NCBI GenBank assembly: GCA_964426225.1
Contig: CAYRPI010000002.1
Coordinates: 1-26,574, forward strand
Length of the DNA stretch: 26,574 nt
Direction: 5' to 3'
Source of the DNA: an uncultured Candidatus Babeliaceae bacterium
GTDB taxonomy: Bacteria; Babelota; Babeliae; Babelales; Babelaceae
Each line of letters starts with the position of its first letter. Within the stretch, counting starts at the first letter, position 1. A program made the translations under genes and the position numbers. Below are positions 5,504 through 17,805 of the stretch, piece by piece. Below the pieces are notes generated by a model. That model did not search any database. It saw nothing but the letters and a program-made list of their open reading frames with translations, and had not been told where the DNA came from.

Positions 5504-6250
5504 TCATCCACGAAATAACGCACCCATAATTGGAATAATCATGTAGAGGCCAAAATACCACAAGGTCTCTCGAACCATCATAGTCTCTACCATCCATAGG
5601 AGAAAATAAGCCCCAACCGAAGCTGCTAGAATACCCAAAAGCCCACCTCCTCCTAACACCGCTCCCAGCTCTCCATTATGCAACAACATCCCCAATCCCA
5701 AAAGCGCCGCACCTCCAAATAGCGGTGCCTGAAGCGCGCAAGAAAATCGAAAAGATCGAGATGCTGTCATTCCCAACCACCTCCCTACAACATACGTCAC
5801 TGCCAATCGAGAAACACCAGGCACCATCAACGCAACTCCCTGCGCTATGCCAACCCATACCCCATCACGCCACTTCAACGGTTTCTCATCGGTCTGTTTA
5901 GCCGGAAACAGTTTTAAAGAGAGCAACAAAAGAGCGGTGCAACCAAAACCAACTACAAAAGGAGCTCTCAGAGGCATTGCATGCGCGAGTAGAAAAAAGA
6001 GCCCCGTAATGGCCTCTGCCACCCCTATAATCCCTGCCCACCGCCACAGCATCAAACTGCTACTAGAGGGGGAAAATAACAAGGCGCTCCACTCGCGTGC
6101 AAAATAAATAAGAAGCATGACCGCGGTAGGACCTTGAGCAAAGAACTCAATCGACCAGGGTACTTCAAATCCGAGCAGATGAAGATGCCCAGAACTACTT
6201 ATCGGGAGTGATTCTAATAAAATTTGCATGAACAGATATAACTGAACCAT
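5504..6250 (-). CDS. uppP: Undecaprenyl-diphosphate phosphatase UppP (BacA family)
   Basis: QxxxESLPISSSGH matches BacA motif 1 (E..LPxSSxGH); AQGVAL.VPGVSR matches motif 2 (PGxSR); multi-pass hydrophobic; GAGG SD. Confidence 0.88.
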   Translation of the reverse strand: MVQLYLFMQILLESLPISSSGHLHLLGFEVPWSIEFFAQGPTAVMLLIYFAREWSALLFSPSSSSLMLWRWAGIIGVAEAITGLFFLLAHAMPLRAPFVVGFGCTALLLLSLKLFPAKQTDEKPLKWRDGVWVGIAQGVALMVPGVSRLAVTYVVGRWLGMTASRSFRFSCALQAPLFGGAALLGLGMLLHNGELGAVLGGGGLLGILAASVGAYFLLWMVETMMVRETLWYFGLYMIIPIMGALFRG

Positions 6251-6322
6251 TTTAATTTCCTCGTCTTTCCAGTACTTTTGCCCACAAGCACTTCTACGTC
6301 AGCAAAAAATTATTAAATATCA

Positions 6323-6351
6323 TTGCATTATCGAACTGTTTTTACTAGATT
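6323..6351 (+). promoter_or_regulatory. Putative sigma70-type promoter TTGCAT-N17-TAGATT for paralogue 1
   Basis: -35 at 6323-6328 and -10 at 6346-6351, in the AT-rich divergent region; implies a ~160-nt leader. Confidence 0.45.
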
Positions 6352-6519
6352 ATACCTCAGACAAGAAAGTTTTATCTGTTCAACACACATAAAATATAGT
6401 CGGAAGGAGGATTTAACGGGCAAATAGAGTAGCATACACGATGCAGTGCATATCGGTTATGGTTTGGTTTATCCCCTAAAGATACATCAAGCTGGTTTTG
6501 GGTTCATCAGGAGTACTTT

Positions 6520-8538
6520 ATGAAGAACCTTTTTAGGTCGTTTTTATGCATAGCGCTGCTTTCAGCAGTCAGCGTTATGGAAGGATCTTGTTGCAGCACA
6601 GGAGGATGTTGTTCAACAACTTCCTGTTGTACATCAACAGGGTCAGGTGACTGCTGTTCAGCACCAAAAACCTTATGGTTCCCTCGGTCAGCTGGTGATA
6701 ACATGGTTATCGACGCTCACCGCCTAGGTTACAAATACAACGAAGAATGTTGCACCTACGGGGAATTTGACGTTTCTTACCGCTACCAACGTAGCTTCAA
6801 AGGCGAACGCATTGCCCAAAGTCTTTTTGGAACATGTGGCCTCAGCTTTGTAGGTAGCCAAGATTCAACACGTACCACAACACCTCCAACAGTTGCAGCT
6901 AATGCTCTGTTAGCAGACTATTTTGGACTTTCACAAGCACAGAGCTTACTTACAACGTCGTTCTGCCCTCGCGTTCAAAACCACTGCATAGACTTCAAAC
7001 TCTATGTTGGTGCAGATGAACTTCTAGAAGGCCTCTACATGCAGCTCAGCCTTCCATTGATCCACACTAAGTGGCAATTGAGCGGCGGGTGCTGTGGCTC
7101 TAACAACAATGGTTGCTGCAACTCCTGCTGTGGCGACAGCTGCTGTGGTGATAGCTGCTGTGGAACAACCACCAGCACAACAACCACTACCACAACCTGT
7201 GGAATTGGGGGCTGCCAAACAGGTACACTCAGCACCGTTGCATTCCCTGCAGGTTACATGAGCAACATTGCAGCTGGTACAGTACCGGTTCTTACAAGCC
7301 TTGCTGATGCACTCAATGGCAAAGCCTTTGGTGATTTCCAAGGTCGTACCTATGGCAAATTCTCAGGCTGCTGTGATGCAACTAAGCTTGCCGGCGTCTA
7401 CTTTGACTTAGGTTACAATTTCTGGGAATGCCCAGACTATCACCTCGGTGTTTATGTAAAAGTTGTTGCCCCAACCGGTACCAACATGAACTGCGACACA
7501 CACGTCAAAAATATCTTCTCCCCTGTAGTTGGTGATTATCACTGGCAATTGGGCGGTGGTATTTCCGGCGCTGCAGAACTTTACAACTGTGAAGATGATC
7601 ACAAGATAACTGCATACCTACAAGGTTATGTAGTTCACTTGTTTGAACGCGAACAAGTTCGTGCATTCGATCTTAACAACGGTGTAATGAGCCGTTACAT
7701 GCTCGCTAAAGAGTTTACCTCTGCTACAACCTTAACCTATGCCAACAAACTATGGTCTGTGATCGACTGGTCGACACGTAAAGCCAAAGTAAAAGTTGAT
7801 GTAAAAGGTGAAGGTACACTTGAGTTTGTTTACAGCAACAGCTGTGGCTTCTCAGCTGGCATAGGTTATGAAATCTATGGCCGTTCAAAGGAAAAGATCT
7901 GCAAGATCTGTAATCTTTGCAACAGCACCATGGCCTCCAAGACCCTCGGTCTTAAAGGTACAGCACCAGTTCAAGCCCCTGGATATTACGTAAGTAATGC
8001 TGTTGGTCCCGTCTGGACTGCACTCACACCAAGCCTCAGTGTCTCCGCAACCCAAAGCACTGCGACAGCATACAAAGCAGGTCTAACCCCAACTACAGCC
8101 GGTACAACTACAGGCAGTTTGGTTGATAGCCCTGTACTAGTAAGTGTTCCAAACCCAGTCGTAGGCGCCAACGTTGGTGAAGCTGCATACGTCAATCCAT
8201 TGACCATGCCTACAACTGTAAATACAACAAACATTGCCGCCAACGCCTTGATAGAATCGTCATCAACTCCGGTAACAGTCATTACTTCCCCTGCTGGTGT
8301 AGTAACAACTATTACAGCTGCTCCAACCCTCCTCACAGACGACAACATTAACAAATGTTCCGCTGCGTTGAACGGCTACATAACCAACAAAGTCTTTGGA
8401 CATGTTGATTATACATGGGACGATTGTTGCTGGAAGCCATCGGTTTACGCTGGCGCTGAAGGTGAATTTGCTAGCTGCTCCGACAAGAACGCAATGAATG
8501 CGTGGGGCATCTGGATTGGAGGCGCTGTAGCCTTCTAA
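6520..8538 (+). CDS. Cys-rich exported protein, putative outer-membrane beta-barrel, paralogue 1 (672 aa)
   Basis: AGGAG SD, signal peptide, about 39 Cys by manual count, alternating-hydrophobic strands (LGVYVKVV, FSAGIGYEIYG, KVFGHVDYTW), C-terminal WGIWIGGAVAF. Block-wise similarity to the two downstream ORFs. Confidence 0.85.
   Translation: MKNLFRSFLCIALLSAVSVMEGSCCSTGGCCSTTSCCTSTGSGDCCSAPKTLWFPRSAGDNMVIDAHRLGYKYNEECCTYGEFDVSYRYQRSFKGERIAQSLFGTCGLSFVGSQDSTRTTTPPTVAANALLADYFGLSQAQSLLTTSFCPRVQNHCIDFKLYVGADELLEGLYMQLSLPLIHTKWQLSGGCCGSNNNGCCNSCCGDSCCGDSCCGTTTSTTTTTTTCGIGGCQTGTLSTVAFPAGYMSNIAAGTVPVLTSLADALNGKAFGDFQGRTYGKFSGCCDATKLAGVYFDLGYNFWECPDYHLGVYVKVVAPTGTNMNCDTHVKNIFSPVVGDYHWQLGGGISGAAELYNCEDDHKITAYLQGYVVHLFEREQVRAFDLNNGVMSRYMLAKEFTSATTLTYANKLWSVIDWSTRKAKVKVDVKGEGTLEFVYSNSCGFSAGIGYEIYGRSKEKICKICNLCNSTMASKTLGLKGTAPVQAPGYYVSNAVGPVWTALTPSLSVSATQSTATAYKAGLTPTTAGTTTGSLVDSPVLVSVPNPVVGANVGEAAYVNPLTMPTTVNTTNIAANALIESSSTPVTVITSPAGVVTTITAAPTLLTDDNINKCSAALNGYITNKVFGHVDYTWDDCCWKPSVYAGAEGEFASCSDKNAMNAWGIWIGGAVAF
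7126..7197 (+). repeat. In-frame 15-bp tandem repeat (CCGDS x2 + CCG) followed by a poly-Thr tract
   Basis: TGCTGTGGCGACAGC TGCTGTGGTGATAGC TGCTGTGGA, then ACA/ACC/ACT codons encoding TTTSTTTTTTT. Confidence 0.9.
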
Positions 8539-8580
8539 GGTTAAGCCTTTCACACCTAAAGACAGACAAAAACAAGCACA

Positions 8581-8616
8581 TAAGGCTCGGGATTTACGTC
8601 CCGGGCCTTATTTTTT
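8581..8616 (+). terminator. Intrinsic terminator after paralogue 1
   Basis: 12-bp stem TAAGGCTCGGGA / TCCCGGGCCTTA (one G-U), 6-nt loop, followed by TTTTTT. Confidence 0.85.
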
Positions 8617-8656
8617 GTCCAAAACCAAAATAGGGACGTAAAAATCCTCAAAAAAT

Positions 8657-8741
8657 AGTAAGCTCTTGTCAACAGTGCATAACAGGTTGTTGCTTGGCCA
8701 ACCATAACATCAGCCAAGTAGGTTCATCAGGAGTACTATTT
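8657..8741 (+). promoter_or_regulatory. Conserved leader upstream of paralogue 2 (candidate structured cis-element)
   Basis: Near-identical to 10811-10894; ends in GGTTCATCAGGAGTACT, which is also present before paralogue 1. Confidence 0.6.
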
Positions 8742-10784
8742 ATGAAGAGCCCCTTGAAATTTTTATGGAAAATCACACCGCGCTACACAGCGCTAGTACG
8801 CACCACCGTGCAGTGTGTCACCGTACTAACCGTTGTCAGCACACTCAACTCACAAGGCTGTTGCGACAGCTGCTGTAATTCAACATCAAGCACAAATTCT
8901 ACAGAAATGTGCAGCCCAAAAACCCTCTGGTTTAGCCGTTCTGCAGGCGACAATCTTGTACTTGATGCCCACCGCTTTGGCTACCGATATTCCGAAAATT
9001 GCTGCTCCTACGGCGCCTTTGGCATATCCTACCGCTACCAACAAACTACAGAAGGGAAACGCATAGCAGAAGGGCTATTTGGAGGATGTGGACTCAGTTT
9101 TGCCGGCAGTTTGGCCACCAGCCGTACCAACAGCACCGTTGCCACTATCTCCCTATTAGCCGATTATTTTGGATTGTCCCAAAAACAGGACAATCTCTCC
9201 ATCTCATTCTGCCCACGTATCAAAAATCATTGCCTAGACTTTCGCCTCTATGCAGGCCTTGAAGACGTTTTAGAAGGTCTTTATATGCAATTTAGCCTAC
9301 CGCTAATTAGCACCCACTGGGACCTAGCAGGCGGAAAATGCTGTTGCCCCTGCAACGCAAGTAACAACTGCTGCTCTACAGAGTGCTGTGCAGGCAGTGC
9401 CGCTATAACCACCGCTGCAGCCCCTAATACCGGCACCTCAACCTGTGGACTAAGCGGCTGCCAAATTGGCACGCTCAATGGCACACCTTTCCCTGCAGGG
9501 TACATGAGCAGCATAGCAAACGGCACCATAGCCCCTGTCTCCACTCTTTTAGATGCTCTTAATGGCAAAGGCTTTGGGGATTTTCAAGGCCGAACTTATG
9601 GCAAATTTTCAGGCACCACAGATGACACAAAATTCGCCGGCATCTACTTTGATCTAGGCTATAATTTCATAGAAGACCCCGACTACAACCTTGGAGTTTA
9701 TCTAAAAGTCATCGCTCCTACCGGGACTAATATGGGAAAAGATACCCATGTAAAAGAAATTTTCTATCCCGTAATCGGTGATTACCAGTGGCAACTGGGG
9801 GGAGGAATTTCAGGACACTGGGAGCTCTACAACTGCGAAAATAACCACACCGTTACCGCCTACCTACAAGGCTATGTTACCCATATGTTTGCAAGCGACC
9901 AGGTACGTGCATTCGATCTTACCAATGGAACCATGAGCCGTTACATGCTTATGAAAGAGTTTGTCTCAAACACCGATCTATCTTACAACAATAAATTATG
10001 GTCTGTAATCGACTGGTCCACACGTAAAGCCACTATAAACGTTGCATACAAGGGTGAAGGATTAATTGAATTTGTGTACCATCACCACTGCGGCTTCTCT
10101 GCCGGTGTTGGGTATGAAATTTATGGCCGTGCAAAAGAGACGATCTGCAAAGTTTTCGCTCCTTACAACAGCGCCTTTACCAGTAAAACTCTCGGACTTA
10201 AAGGTAATGCTCCGGTCTATGCAGATGGATATGTTGTTGACGCTACAGGTGGTGACCACTGGGTCATATTCCCACCCTCAACTGAAGTTCCCTACAACGT
10301 CTCTGCAACACAAAGCTCTGCCACCGCCTATAAATATGGAACCGTTGATAGCGCCATCACCGTCCAATTGCCCATCCCTTTCCCAACCCCAGCTGTAGTA
10401 GGTAATGCTGCTTATGTAAACTCCCTAACGTTCCCCGGGCTTACCAATCCTTCAGTTTTTGCAACGGATACAACAAACATCCAGTCAAACGCTCTACAGG
10501 AATCTGGAACAGGCCCTATCACAGCCATTGATGCTACAACAGGCGATATAACCGGTCTAACCCGCAACCCCACTATCCTCACAGACGACAATATAGACCG
10601 CTGCTCGGCGCTATTAAATGGATACATAACCAATAAAGTCTTTGGCCACATAGATTATATCTGGGACGATTGCTGCTGGGAACCTTCGGTCTATGCTGGA
10701 GCAGAAGGTGAATTTGGAAGCTGCTGCGACAAAAATGCTATGAATGCCTGGGGCATCTGGATTGGGGGATCGGTAGCCTTCTAA
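8742..10784 (+). CDS. Cys-rich exported protein, putative outer-membrane beta-barrel, paralogue 2 (680 aa)
   Basis: Start reassigned to ATG 8742 (AGGAG SD at 8729-8733, followed by a signal-like N-terminus). About 29 Cys, shared blocks (PKTLWF.RSAGDN, LLADYFGL, WQLGGGISG, NKLWSVIDWSTR), ends WGIWIGGSVAF. Confidence 0.85.
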   Translation: MKSPLKFLWKITPRYTALVRTTVQCVTVLTVVSTLNSQGCCDSCCNSTSSTNSTEMCSPKTLWFSRSAGDNLVLDAHRFGYRYSENCCSYGAFGISYRYQQTTEGKRIAEGLFGGCGLSFAGSLATSRTNSTVATISLLADYFGLSQKQDNLSISFCPRIKNHCLDFRLYAGLEDVLEGLYMQFSLPLISTHWDLAGGKCCCPCNASNNCCSTECCAGSAAITTAAAPNTGTSTCGLSGCQIGTLNGTPFPAGYMSSIANGTIAPVSTLLDALNGKGFGDFQGRTYGKFSGTTDDTKFAGIYFDLGYNFIEDPDYNLGVYLKVIAPTGTNMGKDTHVKEIFYPVIGDYQWQLGGGISGHWELYNCENNHTVTAYLQGYVTHMFASDQVRAFDLTNGTMSRYMLMKEFVSNTDLSYNNKLWSVIDWSTRKATINVAYKGEGLIEFVYHHHCGFSAGVGYEIYGRAKETICKVFAPYNSAFTSKTLGLKGNAPVYADGYVVDATGGDHWVIFPPSTEVPYNVSATQSSATAYKYGTVDSAITVQLPIPFPTPAVVGNAAYVNSLTFPGLTNPSVFATDTTNIQSNALQESGTGPITAIDATTGDITGLTRNPTILTDDNIDRCSALLNGYITNKVFGHIDYIWDDCCWEPSVYAGAEGEFGSCCDKNAMNAWGIWIGGSVAF

Positions 10785-10810
10785 AATTTTGCGTCTCGGG
10801 CCCTATTTGT

Positions 10811-10894
10811 AGTAAGCTCTTGAGCGAATGCATAACGGGTTGTCGCTTGGCCAACCACAACATCAGTCAAGTAGGTTCATCAGGAGTACTAAAT
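10811..10894 (+). promoter_or_regulatory. Conserved leader upstream of paralogue 3 (candidate structured cis-element)
   Basis: Only 4 substitutions versus the paralogue 2 leader between TGCATAAC and GAGTACTA. Confidence 0.6.
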
Positions 10895-12898
10895 ATGAAG
10901 AACCAATTTAAATTTTTATGGAGCACCACCGTGCTAAGTAGAGTGCATAGTATTGCATTACTAGCCCTAGTAAGCGCAAACAGTTTACACGGATGTTGCG
11001 GATGCGAATGCTCTGCAATAGGATTAGGGGGAACAGAAAACGATAGAAACGAACCCAAAACTCTCTGGTTTGGCCGTTCAGCTGGAGATAACCTGGTCAT
11101 TGATGGGCACCGCTTTGGATACAAACATGTCGAAGACTGTTGCACCTATGGCGATTTTAGCATCTCCTACCGTTATCAAAAAAACTTCCACGGAAAACGA
11201 CTAGCGGAAAGTCTCTTTGGAACCAGCACCCTAAATTTTGCCGGCAGCAGAGCCCCTAGTAGGATAAACACACCTGCAACCGTTGCCGACAATACACTTC
11301 TTGCAGACTATTTTGGTCTTGCTCAAGACACCGACAATCTCGCCGTCTCCTTTAATCCCTGCGTACAAAATCACACCATAGATTTTAAACTTTACATTGG
11401 GTTAAATGAACTGTGTGATGGACTTTATCTGCAATTTAATACCCCCTTAGTTCACACCAAGTGGAGTCTAAATAAATGCAACTCCTGTGACAGCTGCTGC
11501 AACTCATGCACCTCAAGTGGCTGCTATGGGACAGGACCCCTTCCCAGAGTTGTCTCAACAACCTGCGGTCTTAGCGGAGAAATAACGGGAACTCTTTCAC
11601 AAACGCTCTTCCCAGATGGCTACATGAGCTCCTACTACAAAATCACAACGCCTCCTTCAACAACGGCAAATCCTATTACCCCCCTCGCTTCTCTTGCAAG
11701 TGCTCTAAACGGCGCCCCATTCGGCGACTATCAAGGGAGGTCCTATGGCCGCTTTTCAGGGTACTGTAACGACACTAAATTTGCAGGATTCTACTGCGAT
11801 TTAGGGTACAATTTTCTCGAATGCCCAGACTACCACCTAGGCCTCTACCTAAAAATTGTCGCTCCTACCGGCACCGATATGAACAGCGAAAATCACGTAG
11901 CCAACCTCTTCTATCCCGTTATTGGTGACTTTCACTGGCAATTGGGAGGCGGTATTTCTGGCCATTGGGAGATCTATAACTGTGACGATGATCACGTCCT
12001 AACCGCTTATCTACAAGCCTATGCCACACACCTTTTTGGACGCGAACAAGTTCGAACCTTTGATTTAACTAATGGTCCTATGAGCCGCTACATGCTTATG
12101 AAAGAGTTTACCACTACAAATACCTATGCCAACAAACTCTGGTCTGTAATTGATTGGTCTACCCGCAGAGCAGAAGTAAAAGTGGATGCGAAAGGCGAAG
12201 CATTAATTGAATTTATATACAACAATAACTGTGGCTTCTCAGCTGGTATTGGATATGAACTGTACGGTCGCTCAAAAGAAAAGGTCTGCTGCCCTTATAA
12301 CACCCCACTCAACAGCTCCCTTGAAAACAAAATCGTTGGTCTCAAAGGCTGCGCGCCTGTTGATGCGCCGCTTTATGGATTAGCAGCTAATGTGGTCCAA
12401 GCTGGGGTTATAAACTCGTACTACAACGCTGCTTATCCTGCCCCAGCAACCCCCCATGGGCTAGGTTCAACTCAAAGTACGGCTACAGCATACACATGTG
12501 GAACCGTTGACAATAAAATTGCTCTTGTAGACGCCGTAACCAACAACGTTGTCTATTCAAACCCTCTAATCTATACCAATCCGGTTGGACTAACCGGCAC
12601 GACCGTTGCCGTAGAAGACTCGGCAACCGGTAATTTAGCAATCGCACCTGCAGGCAATGTAACCGGCCTTACCGCCAATCCAACAGTACTTACAGGTACC
12701 AGCCTTAATAGATGCTCTGCTGCCCTAAAAGGCTATATCACCAACAAAGTCTTTGGCCACATAGACTATACCTGGGACGATTGCCACAATTGGAAGCCTG
12801 TCATTTATGTGGGAGCAGAAGGAGAATTTGCAAGCCGCTGTGACAAAAATGCTATGAATGCCTGGGGCTTCTGGCTTGGAGGAAACATAGCATTCTAA
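10895..12898 (+). CDS. Cys-rich exported protein, putative outer-membrane beta-barrel, paralogue 3 (667 aa)
   Basis: Start reassigned to ATG 10895 (AGGAG SD). About 27 Cys, same conserved blocks, ends WGFWLGGNIAF. Confidence 0.85.
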   Translation: MKNQFKFLWSTTVLSRVHSIALLALVSANSLHGCCGCECSAIGLGGTENDRNEPKTLWFGRSAGDNLVIDGHRFGYKHVEDCCTYGDFSISYRYQKNFHGKRLAESLFGTSTLNFAGSRAPSRINTPATVADNTLLADYFGLAQDTDNLAVSFNPCVQNHTIDFKLYIGLNELCDGLYLQFNTPLVHTKWSLNKCNSCDSCCNSCTSSGCYGTGPLPRVVSTTCGLSGEITGTLSQTLFPDGYMSSYYKITTPPSTTANPITPLASLASALNGAPFGDYQGRSYGRFSGYCNDTKFAGFYCDLGYNFLECPDYHLGLYLKIVAPTGTDMNSENHVANLFYPVIGDFHWQLGGGISGHWEIYNCDDDHVLTAYLQAYATHLFGREQVRTFDLTNGPMSRYMLMKEFTTTNTYANKLWSVIDWSTRRAEVKVDAKGEALIEFIYNNNCGFSAGIGYELYGRSKEKVCCPYNTPLNSSLENKIVGLKGCAPVDAPLYGLAANVVQAGVINSYYNAAYPAPATPHGLGSTQSTATAYTCGTVDNKIALVDAVTNNVVYSNPLIYTNPVGLTGTTVAVEDSATGNLAIAPAGNVTGLTANPTVLTGTSLNRCSAALKGYITNKVFGHIDYTWDDCHNWKPVIYVGAEGEFASRCDKNAMNAWGFWLGGNIAF

Positions 12899-12917: not shown

Positions 12918-12975
12918 AAACAAGAGAGTATGTTCGTATAAAAAAGTAATTTTGTGCGAACATACCCTCTTGTTT
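12918..12975. terminator. Long hairpin, probable bidirectional terminator between paralogue 3 and nth
   Basis: 26-position stem AAACAAGAGAGTATGTTCGTATAAAA / TTTTGTGCGAACATACCCTCTTGTTT with one mismatch and two G-U pairs, 6-nt loop, AT-rich flanks, between convergent genes. Confidence 0.75.
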
Positions 12976-17238: not shown

Positions 17239-17805
17239 TTAAAATTGAATGTGTGGAACATTACGCTCTTCGGCACTATCCAATTCAAAATAAGGTGCCA
17301 CTACAAAACCGGTGACACCTGCAATAATACGTGAGGGGAACATCTGAACCCCGATATTATAATTTCTAGCCGCACCATTGTAGTACCGACGAGATAACTG
17401 AAGCTCATCTTCCAAGGATGCTAAATCTTTTTGAAGAGACATAAAATTTTGATTCGCTTTCAAATCAGGATAATTTTCAGCCACTGCAAAAAGAGTTTTT
17501 AAAGCAGACGTCAACTGACCTTCGGCCACCGCCTTTTGTTCAATGCCCACTGCACTCATCGAGACAGAACGCATGCGTGCTATATTCTCAAGAACTTCTT
17601 TTTCATGAATACCGTACTGTTTCACCACTGCGACTAAATTAGGAATTAAGTCATAACGACGCTTAAGTTGCACGCTAATGCCACTCCACCCTTCATCCAC
17701 CATAGCTTTTAAACGAACAAGGCCGTTATAGCCCTGCATAAACCAGAAACCAACCACTAAAATTGCCGCCGCAATTCCTATTAAAACAATACCCATAGAA
17801 GACAT
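17239..17805 (-). CDS. lemA: LemA family protein
   Basis: N-terminal TM anchor, YNGLVRL, W..I.VQLKRRYDLIPNLV..VK.Y..HEKEVL, AVAENYPDLKANQNF, RRYYN...RNYN, FPS.IIAG. Confidence 0.95.
   Translation of the reverse strand: MSSMGIVLIGIAAAILVVGFWFMQGYNGLVRLKAMVDEGWSGISVQLKRRYDLIPNLVAVVKQYGIHEKEVLENIARMRSVSMSAVGIEQKAVAEGQLTSALKTLFAVAENYPDLKANQNFMSLQKDLASLEDELQLSRRYYNGAARNYNIGVQMFPSRIIAGVTGFVVAPYFELDSAEERNVPHIQF

Follow-up and report, generated by a model that had tools for sequence, protein, structure and literature searches.

Introduction

H-type pseudoknots are known as operators or riboswitches from T4 gene 32, rpsO/S15, preQ1-II and SAM-II, and both of their stems covary. Hairpins that enclose the Shine-Dalgarno (SD) sequence or the start codon are known from the MS2 replicase operator and from RNA thermometers. 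We know of no work on post-transcriptional control in the Dependentiae, which are uncultivated, mostly intracellular bacteria. Here we analyse the leader (positions 8676-8741) of w2, the second of three tandem paralogous genes (w1, w2 and w3) in a stretch of 26,574 nucleotides (nt), called the window below, from an uncultured Candidatus Babeliaceae bacterium (contig CAYRPI010000002.1, assembly GCA_964426225.1). An initial annotation had proposed that the leaders of w2 and w3 can fold as a textbook H-type pseudoknot made of two stems, S1 (GGTTG 8685-8689 with CAACC 8699-8703) and S2 (CTTGGC 8693-8698 with GCCAAG 8713-8718), and the complementarity of both stems is as it described. We think it rather probable that 8676-8741 is the 5' untranslated leader of w2 and represents a modular mRNA leader that is shared by a gene family in one Dependentiae lineage and acts on mRNA stability or translation start. 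With more confidence than in that reading as a whole, we conclude from related leaders that the hairpin built on S2, called HP1, is real and that the pseudoknot is not conserved.

Several described systems resemble the w2 leader in part. As in the H-type pseudoknot operators, it lies just upstream of the SD, and three leaders can be drawn with two stems and short loops; it differs from those families in that one stem covaries and in that no ligand-binding core or Rfam model matches. As in the MS2 operator and thermometer-type hairpins, a predicted helix of the leader, HP2, pairs a box upstream of the SD (the pre-SD box) with the start region, but the SD is unpaired in the loop. The stabiliser in the 5' untranslated region (UTR) of Escherichia coli ompA likewise belongs to a gene for an abundant outer-membrane beta-barrel protein, which w2 probably is as well, and has a conserved stem-loop near an exposed, strong SD (PMC7509114). 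The presumed role, mRNA protection and efficient initiation, would be alike as well (PMC7509114). Unlike the ompA element, the w2 leader has sequence-conserved single-stranded flanks and a second helix around the SD and the AUG; there is no sequence or Rfam relationship between the two, and the hosts belong to different phyla. In cry3A of Bacillus thuringiensis, the STAB-SD is located close to the 5' end of the transcript, which starts at -129 (PMC4113751). This SD-like 5' stabiliser, which blocks RNase J1, has been described in Gram-positives, whereas the host here belongs to a diderm candidate phylum. The longer leaders of the w2 family resemble cry3A in having an SD-like box far upstream (here about 70-155 nt) of the start codon; the w2 and w3 leaders differ from it in lacking such a box.

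The Leaders of w2 and w3 and Their Relatives

Exactly 4 of 63 positions differ between 8676-8738 and 10829-10891, as the initial annotation had counted (w2/w3: 8684 A/G, 8691 T/C, 8705 T/C and 8714 C/T). It was also right that the substitution at 8714 gives a G-U pair and that none of the four disrupts S1. The two leaders are 92% identical, against a mean of 58.5% for the coding sequences and 88% for the best coding window (windows of 60 columns), which bears out the statement that the leader is conserved beyond the coding sequence. This conservation exceeds the background, and the leader is the best-conserved part of both paralogues. A paralogue in GCA_003506475.1, the nearest relative genome, has the same type of leader (locus L002, ATG at 17300, hereafter L002_17300), so the conservation holds between genomes and goes beyond gene conversion inside one genome. 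The conservation had been taken as a sign of RNA structure in the leader; this part stood for the hairpin S2 and fell for S1, for the pseudoknot and for the riboswitch-like reading. The leader of w1, which had been said to keep only the two flanking boxes, also retains a hairpin equivalent to S2 (GGUUUGGU 6461-6468 with AUCAAGCU 6486-6493).

Loci with family members, designated by L numbers, were gathered from metagenomes, species-representative genomes and contigs encoding individual homologues, and their upstream regions were then read. A modular leader is common to one Dependentiae sub-lineage, in which the protein identity to w2 goes down to about 33-39%. From 5' to 3' the module consists of the box RURUCGGUUG, a spacer of 0-7 nt, a hairpin of variable sequence, an A/U-rich spacer, the pre-SD block (G)GUUYCAUCA, GGAGUA, another 5-7 nt and the AUG.

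Hairpin HP1

Stem S2 proved to be real, as the 8-bp hairpin HP1 (8691-8698/8713-8720), which occupies the same position in at least 11 leaders of 8 contigs. HP1 is the minimum free energy (MFE) structure in the w2 and w1 leaders, and in w2 its 3' end lies 8 nt before AGGAG. A covariance model (R1) was seeded with 7 close leaders, with S2 as the sole structure given. The loops of the seed were trimmed by hand to 10 nt, since MAFFT misaligned the 3' arms of the raw leaders; rows padded with N were shifted by MAFFT and were unusable for counts. When 554 kb of loci were scanned with R1, the best 14 matches all ended at the ATG of a family gene, and those outside the seed included L087 (E 1e-6), L091 (5e-4), L089 (0.01) and L009 (0.08). 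A second covariance model (R2) gave no further strong members (L019, E 0.03; L082, E 0.2). In the loci covered by these scans, the motif is confined to one sub-lineage of Dependentiae.

On the alignment of real sequences obtained with R1 (A7), 95.2% of the HP1 cells pair and 5 of the 8 pairs have changed on both sides (17 cells); none of 500 shuffles reached these pairing and compensation values, and sliding the partner by 1-3 columns lowered the pairing to 25-53%. Ten cells of the alignment are G-U, so the helix is specific to the sense RNA strand. By hand inspection, the arms of L007, of L009, of L087 set against those of L091, and of L089 are wholly different in sequence and perfectly complementary (Table 1). 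Between HP1 of w1 and that of its orthologue L002_3569, U-A has changed to C-G and G-U to G-C. An unbiased check gave the same picture: when only the segment from the box to the SD was folded in 17 leaders, a hairpin stood directly after the box in the MFE structure of 16 (Fisher p = 5e-6 over 12 leaders, one per close group). The exception was L011, in which the box GGUUG is itself in the stem, so that the trimmed segment shows the inner part only. The covariation across genomes that the initial annotation had named as the test of its fold was thus found as compensatory changes in HP1/S2, with S1 remaining at the shuffle level. Together, these comparisons show HP1 to be a conserved, predicted RNA hairpin of the sense strand whose sequence drifts while its complementarity is kept.

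HP1 was also considered as an intrinsic terminator or attenuator, which would call for a G+C-rich hairpin with a U run directly behind it. A terminator scan flagged nothing at 8691-8720 or 10844-10873, and no U run follows HP1 in w2 and w3. The leaders of the paralogue-1 type have GGUUUU or GUUUUU 0-2 nt after HP1.

The Flanking Box and the Shine-Dalgarno Region

The box with the consensus RURUCGGUUG is conserved in the leaders of w1, w3, L002, L009, L082, L087, L089, L091 and L019 and is degenerate in L007, L085, L086 and L090. Its distance to the ATG ranges from 42 to 73 nt across the leaders, and it is found 0-7 nt 5' of the hairpin in every one. CGGUUG is kept even in leaders with hairpin loops of 4-8 nt, where no S1 partner is present, so S1 does not explain the conservation of its own 5' arm. 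Judged by these leaders, the box is shown to be conserved independently of any S1 partner. A search of the window for an antisense partner of the box or of the pre-SD block found none.

In the SD itself, GGAG is invariant in the leader alignment A5, and the 17-mer GGTTCATCAGGAGTACT is identical in w1, w2 and w3. When the segment from -26 to +15 of w2 was folded, GGUUC.AUCA paired with UGA.GAGCC to form HP2, and the SD was placed in the loop except for its first base, A8729, which closes the helix. HP2 is found in the MFE folds of eight leaders (w1, w2, w3, both of L002, L007, L085 and, in an altered form, L009), with energies of -8 to -10 kcal/mol in segments of 38-41 nt. On a plain MAFFT alignment of 13 leaders (A10), 85.4% of the HP2 cells are paired, a value reached by 2 of 500 shuffles, and one pair is compensatory, switching between G-C and U-A or U-G. 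These values are only suggestive of a conserved helix enclosing the SD because the 3' side is coding sequence. The complementarity of the pre-SD block GGUUCAUCA to the start codon and codons 2-4 (UGA.GAACC) is likewise seen at 6500-6529 and 10874-10904. In w2, an Asn-to-Ser codon change preserves a U-G pair of HP2.

Proposed Role of the Leader

The module would work post-transcriptionally on proteins of the envelope that are presumably abundant. By analogy with the ompA 5' UTR and the Gram-positive 5' stabilisers, HP1 would be a stem-loop with a protective or organising role beside the ribosome-binding region. HP2, with the pre-SD box paired to the start codon and codons 2-4 and the SD in its loop, would govern how fast translation starts. 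The single-stranded boxes, whose sequence is conserved, would be places where a trans-acting factor, a ribonuclease, a protein, a small RNA or the ribosome makes contact. A function in stability or translation is thus what the described systems suggest for the module.

Several points weigh against this reading. A pure stabiliser model leaves the sequence conservation of the flanking boxes unexplained. The support for HP2 is modest, its 3' side being under coding constraint. The HP1 counts were made on an alignment that the covariance model had fitted to the structure, and the loops in the seed of that model had been trimmed by hand. No more than some 8-12 related contigs supplied the sequences, which leaves few independent events. 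The folding energies of whole leaders are ordinary, with z scores of -0.1 to +1.4 for the 78-84-nt leaders; the 38-nt core of w2 has a z score of -1.6.

Transcript Context, Promoters and Possible Processing

In first-of-array genes, the sequence TTGCAT-N17-TAGATT is found about 170-190 nt upstream of the ATG, and the copy in the window (Table 1) would imply a w1 5' UTR of about 160 nt. With the promoter that far upstream, a long 5' UTR would include the box and HP1, which favours a role at the RNA level. The minus strand reads TATAAT at 6349-6354 and may serve the divergent bacA too. An intrinsic terminator follows w1, so w2 needs its own start or a processing site. The 13-mer TAGTAAGCTCTTG, present before w2 and w3, is also found upstream of the L002 paralogues 7985, 15179 and 17300, and the related TAGTAGGATCTAT lies 15 nt after a -35-like hexamer, TTGATT, in L087_3697 and L091_6001. 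This 13-mer is probably a -10 region with the transcript start, or else a processing site, and we would guess that the w2 transcript starts near 8668. A scan of the w2 and w3 leaders with consensus promoters found no sigma-70 site. The promoter candidates TAGTAA, CATAAC and TAAAAT, read by hand, were ambiguous and were not used. In L002, the part CTCTTGGCAG of the 13-mer nearly repeats the HP1 5' arm, and in the MFE structure of L002_17300 it pairs with the HP1 3' arm instead. A strong terminator follows w3 at 12928-12965, and the terminator scan found none between w2 and w3 (a gap of 110 nt; w2 stop to w3 leader, 10785-10809); these two genes may be co-transcribed.

The box could instead act at the DNA level, with CATAAC, CATATC or CATAAT as the -10 element, a start near 8689-8691 and HP1 as a 5'-terminal stem-loop of the ompA hp1 type; with such a start, S1 could not exist in the RNA. 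The hexamers CATAAT in L002_17300 and CATATC or CATAAC elsewhere do resemble TATAAT, HP1 begins 7-9 nt past the hexamer, where a start site is expected, and a stabilising stem-loop at the 5' end is a known arrangement that would fit, such stem-loops having reportedly been found to stabilise mRNA by Emory, Bouvet and Belasco in 1992. However, in L087_3697 and L091_6001 the position of the hexamer reads GTGTCG, which is not -10-like, and what is conserved there is the core TCGGTTG. There is also no -35 element at 16-18 nt, the consensus scan found no promoter at the box, a much better promoter stands 170-190 nt before the genes that open an array, and the spacing between the upstream TAGTAAGCTCTTG and the box varies from 4 to 7 nt. 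We regard the DNA-level explanation as unlikely.

The box and HP1 might also form an endonuclease processing signal, in which a cut in the box, guided by the hairpin, separates the mRNAs of the array and the hairpin protects the new 5' end. Cleavage by RNase Y guided by hairpins is known in Staphylococcus, the 110 nt between w2 and w3 hold no terminator while w1 and w3 are each followed by one, and a module precedes each paralogue, with 0-7 nt from the box to the hairpin behind it in every leader. Against this, genes that come first in their array carry the module too, although they do not have to be separated from a preceding cistron, and we consider processing improbable as the explanation of the module.

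Stem S1 and the Proposed Pseudoknot

The textbook H-type pseudoknot did not hold up, since S1 is without covariation and is impossible in most relatives, whose loops are of 4-8 nt. On the HP1 alignment, 72.7% of the S1 cells pair against 69.1% in shuffles, 28 of 500 of which reach the observed value. One S1 pair has changed on both sides, which is not above the shuffles, and slid controls reach up to 53%. No S1 partner is present in L007, L009, L082, L086, L087, L089, L090 and L091, all with loops of 4-8 nt. A loop starting with CAACC or CAGCC is found solely in w2, w3 and L002_17300, in loops of 14-15 nt, and the loops of the other leaders (4-24 nt) are without it. P0011, which looked like a possible fourth CAACC leader, is a piece of w3 itself and was discarded. 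Of loops shuffled by mononucleotide, 26% could form 5 Watson-Crick pairs in a row with the 8-16 nt before them, and the share was 51% when G-U was allowed; with a G/U-rich box and an A/C-rich loop, the S1 complementarity is therefore not beyond chance. S1 alone is worth -4.6 kcal/mol in w2, compared to -9.9 for HP1. The CAACC of the loop can also pair with GGUU 8721-8724, and in the MFE structure of L002_17300 S1 occurs as a plain hairpin inside another long-range helix, so its partner is not unique. A conserved S1 is not supported by these comparisons, and the stem would have arisen incidentally where, in three leaders that are close relatives, an A/C-rich loop faces the G/U-rich box, with the pseudoknot no conserved feature.

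A pseudoknot specific to the lineage of w2, w3 and L002_17300, formed by CAACC/CAGCC with the GGUUG of the box or with GGUU 8721-8724, is a doubtful alternative. In its favour, S1 is fully Watson-Crick in w2 and w3, it is left intact by all four differences between them, and L002_17300 differs by one A-to-G change that still allows U-G pairing; the loops of 14-15 nt are longer than the 4-8 nt of most relatives, and the geometry is sterically plausible. Yet only these three closely related leaders can form S1, none with a compensatory change, its pairing is near the shuffle level and a quarter or so of shuffled loops (26%) offer such a match, the 5' arm is kept where the partner is absent, the loop pairs with a second site equally well, and the stem is weak next to HP1 and has no Rfam match. 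That such a pseudoknot would be regulatory, such as a switch that works against HP2 under the control of a ligand or a protein, is equally a long shot. The most far-reaching form of the idea, that the CAACC of the HP1 loop in the w2/w3 clade toggles between GGUUG of the box and GGUU 8721-8724, opening and closing HP2 as a translational switch that responds to some factor, and that box, HP1 and HP2 constitute a novel class of cis-regulatory leaders serving the major outer-membrane protein family of Dependentiae, is speculative and has little probability in our view.

The initial annotation could match the leader to no riboswitch class, and Rfam 15 agreed, giving no match at the gathering score in the window. 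At E values up to 5 over 6250-10950, four weak matches to miRNA models were obtained, all at 7127-7197 and none in a leader. These matches (E 0.05-3) are on the minus strand, in the TGC/TGT-rich Cys-repeat coding sequence of w1, and are almost certainly chance hits to low-complexity sequence.

Operator and Coding Readings

Two further readings that the initial annotation had listed as competitors were refuted by the relatives. A DNA operator for a dimeric transcription factor, centred on the palindrome TTGGCCAA (8694-8701), is very improbable: this 8-bp palindrome is perfect in w2 and w3, but the site reads TTGGCCAG in L002_17300 and TTTGGTTT in w1 and is absent from all other leaders, and the conserved property is complementarity between arms lying apart, some of it through G-U pairs, which in DNA would count as mismatches. 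An N-terminal extension from TTG 8694, with the upstream peptide ANHNISQVGSSGVL, has next to no chance of being correct, for although w2, w3 and L002_17300 keep this frame open before the ATG, 9 relatives have a stop in frame at 9-33 nt before it, the distances from box to ATG (42, 47, 50 ... 73 nt) are not multiples of 3, the L002_17300 upstream peptide is frame-shifted relative to that of w2, and AGGAG stands 8 nt before the ATG that opens the conserved MK(N) signal peptide. At the level of sequence comparison, the leader is shown to be neither coding nor a palindromic DNA site.

Table 1. Positions of the leader elements and associated signals in the window, and HP1 arms of related leaders.
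Feature	Position	Strand	Sequence or composition	Basis or remark
Sigma-70-like promoter of the gene array	6323-6351	+	TTGCAT-N17-TAGATT	Same hexamers and spacing in L007, L009, L085, L087, L089, L090, L091
STAB-SD-like box (SD type) in the long w1 leader	6402-6410	+	GGAAGGAGG	
w1 module	6448-6529	+	Box 6448-6459; HP1 6461-6468/6486-6493; GGUUUUG spacer; pre-SD box and SD 6501-6517; ATG 6520	
Intrinsic terminator after w1	8580-8611	+	14-bp stem and T run	
Upstream 13-mer	8656-8668	+	TAGTAAGCTCTTG	Exact copies at 8656 and 10810 (10810-10822)
Box	8678-8689	+	CATAACAGGTTG; consensus RURUCGGUUG; contains S1 5' arm 8685-8689	Comparison of leaders
HP1 5' arm (S2 extended by two pairs)	8691-8698	+	UGCUUGGC	MFE fold, covariation
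HP1 loop	8699-8712	+	14 nt, starting CAACC (proposed S1 3' arm)	Leader comparison
HP1 3' arm	8713-8720	+	GCCAAGUA	MFE fold, covariation
Pre-SD box, HP2 5' side (8721-8725, 8727-8729)	8721-8729	+	GGUUCAUCA	Folds, alignment
SD	8729-8733	+	AGGAG	Read from sequence; start codon 8 nt further 3'
Start codon (8742-8744) and codons 2-4, HP2 3' side (8743-8745, 8747-8751)	8742-8751	+		Folds, alignment
w3 module	10831-10904	+	Box 10831-10842; HP1 10845-10851/10866-10872 (7 bp, one G-U); pre-SD box and SD 10874-10890; ATG 10895; HP2 3' side to 10904	
HP1 arms, L002_3569			AGUUUGGC / GCCAAGCU	
HP1 arms, L007			GCUUAACC / GGUUAAGC	
HP1 arms, L009			GACCUAGG / CCUAGGUU	
HP1 arms, L087			UCUUGAUU / AAUCAAGA	
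HP1 arms, L091			UCUUGAUC / GAUCAAGA	
HP1 arms, L089			CUUGGUCUU / AAGAUCGAG	
HP1 arms, L090			GGCCUU / AAGGUC	
HP1 arms, L082			CUCGAUU / AAUCGGG	

The SD-Like Box of Longer Leaders

In 34 of 124 non-redundant family leaders from Dependentiae contigs, a box of the GAAAGGAGG type (G[AG]AAGGAGG-type) precedes the ATG by 67-155 nt. Its density there is 1.07 per kb, about 19 times the background of 0.055 per kb. By eye, no obvious start codon follows it in w1, L007 and L009. The box was sought in the w2 and w3 leaders and was absent. Example loci that carry it are L007, L009, L019, L021, L022, L041, L047, L053 and L056.

Gene Family and Host

The three tandem paralogues encode proteins of about 670 amino acids (ATG at 6520 for w1, 8742 for w2 and 10895 for w3), and the array spans 6520-12898. 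Housekeeping genes of the window are mraW, a Mur ligase gene, ftsK, bacA, an endonuclease III-like gene and those of ThrRS and dnaE. The w1-w3 proteins start with an MK(N) signal peptide, have many Cys-Cys runs and end in ...AF. A Pfam search of the three matched no family. An AlphaFold (AF2) model of a paralogue protein, with a predicted local distance difference test score (pLDDT) of 69, resembles FapF, FadL, a COG4313 channel and porins (E 1e-7 to 1e-4, with low TM-scores). From this model, w1-w3 probably encode cysteine-rich outer-membrane beta-barrel proteins that are major surface proteins of the host. A literature search on outer-membrane proteins of Dependentiae found nothing relevant.

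Homologues were found solely in genomes of Candidatus Dependentiae/Babeliales (TM6) and in metagenomes, and the protein family is spread Dependentiae-wide. Its members have a signal peptide, stretches rich in Cys-Cys and a C-terminal ...F, and no Pfam domain. The homologues elsewhere also form tandem arrays, usually of 2-6 copies and often adjoining bacA-ftsK. One locus looks like an exception: L084 (CAYIZV010000171.1, 2.2 kb), binned as "uncultured Neisseria sp.", holds a 27%-identical family member, and this contig is probably mis-binned.

Conclusions

The leader motif is undescribed but appears ordinary in kind, and within the loci scanned it belongs to a single lineage of an uncultivated phylum. 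A pseudoknot that is visually convincing from two paralogues dissolves when relatives are compared. The module could join the libraries of RNA families and, being common to paralogues and genomes, would offer a handle on the co-expression of these probable outer-membrane genes.

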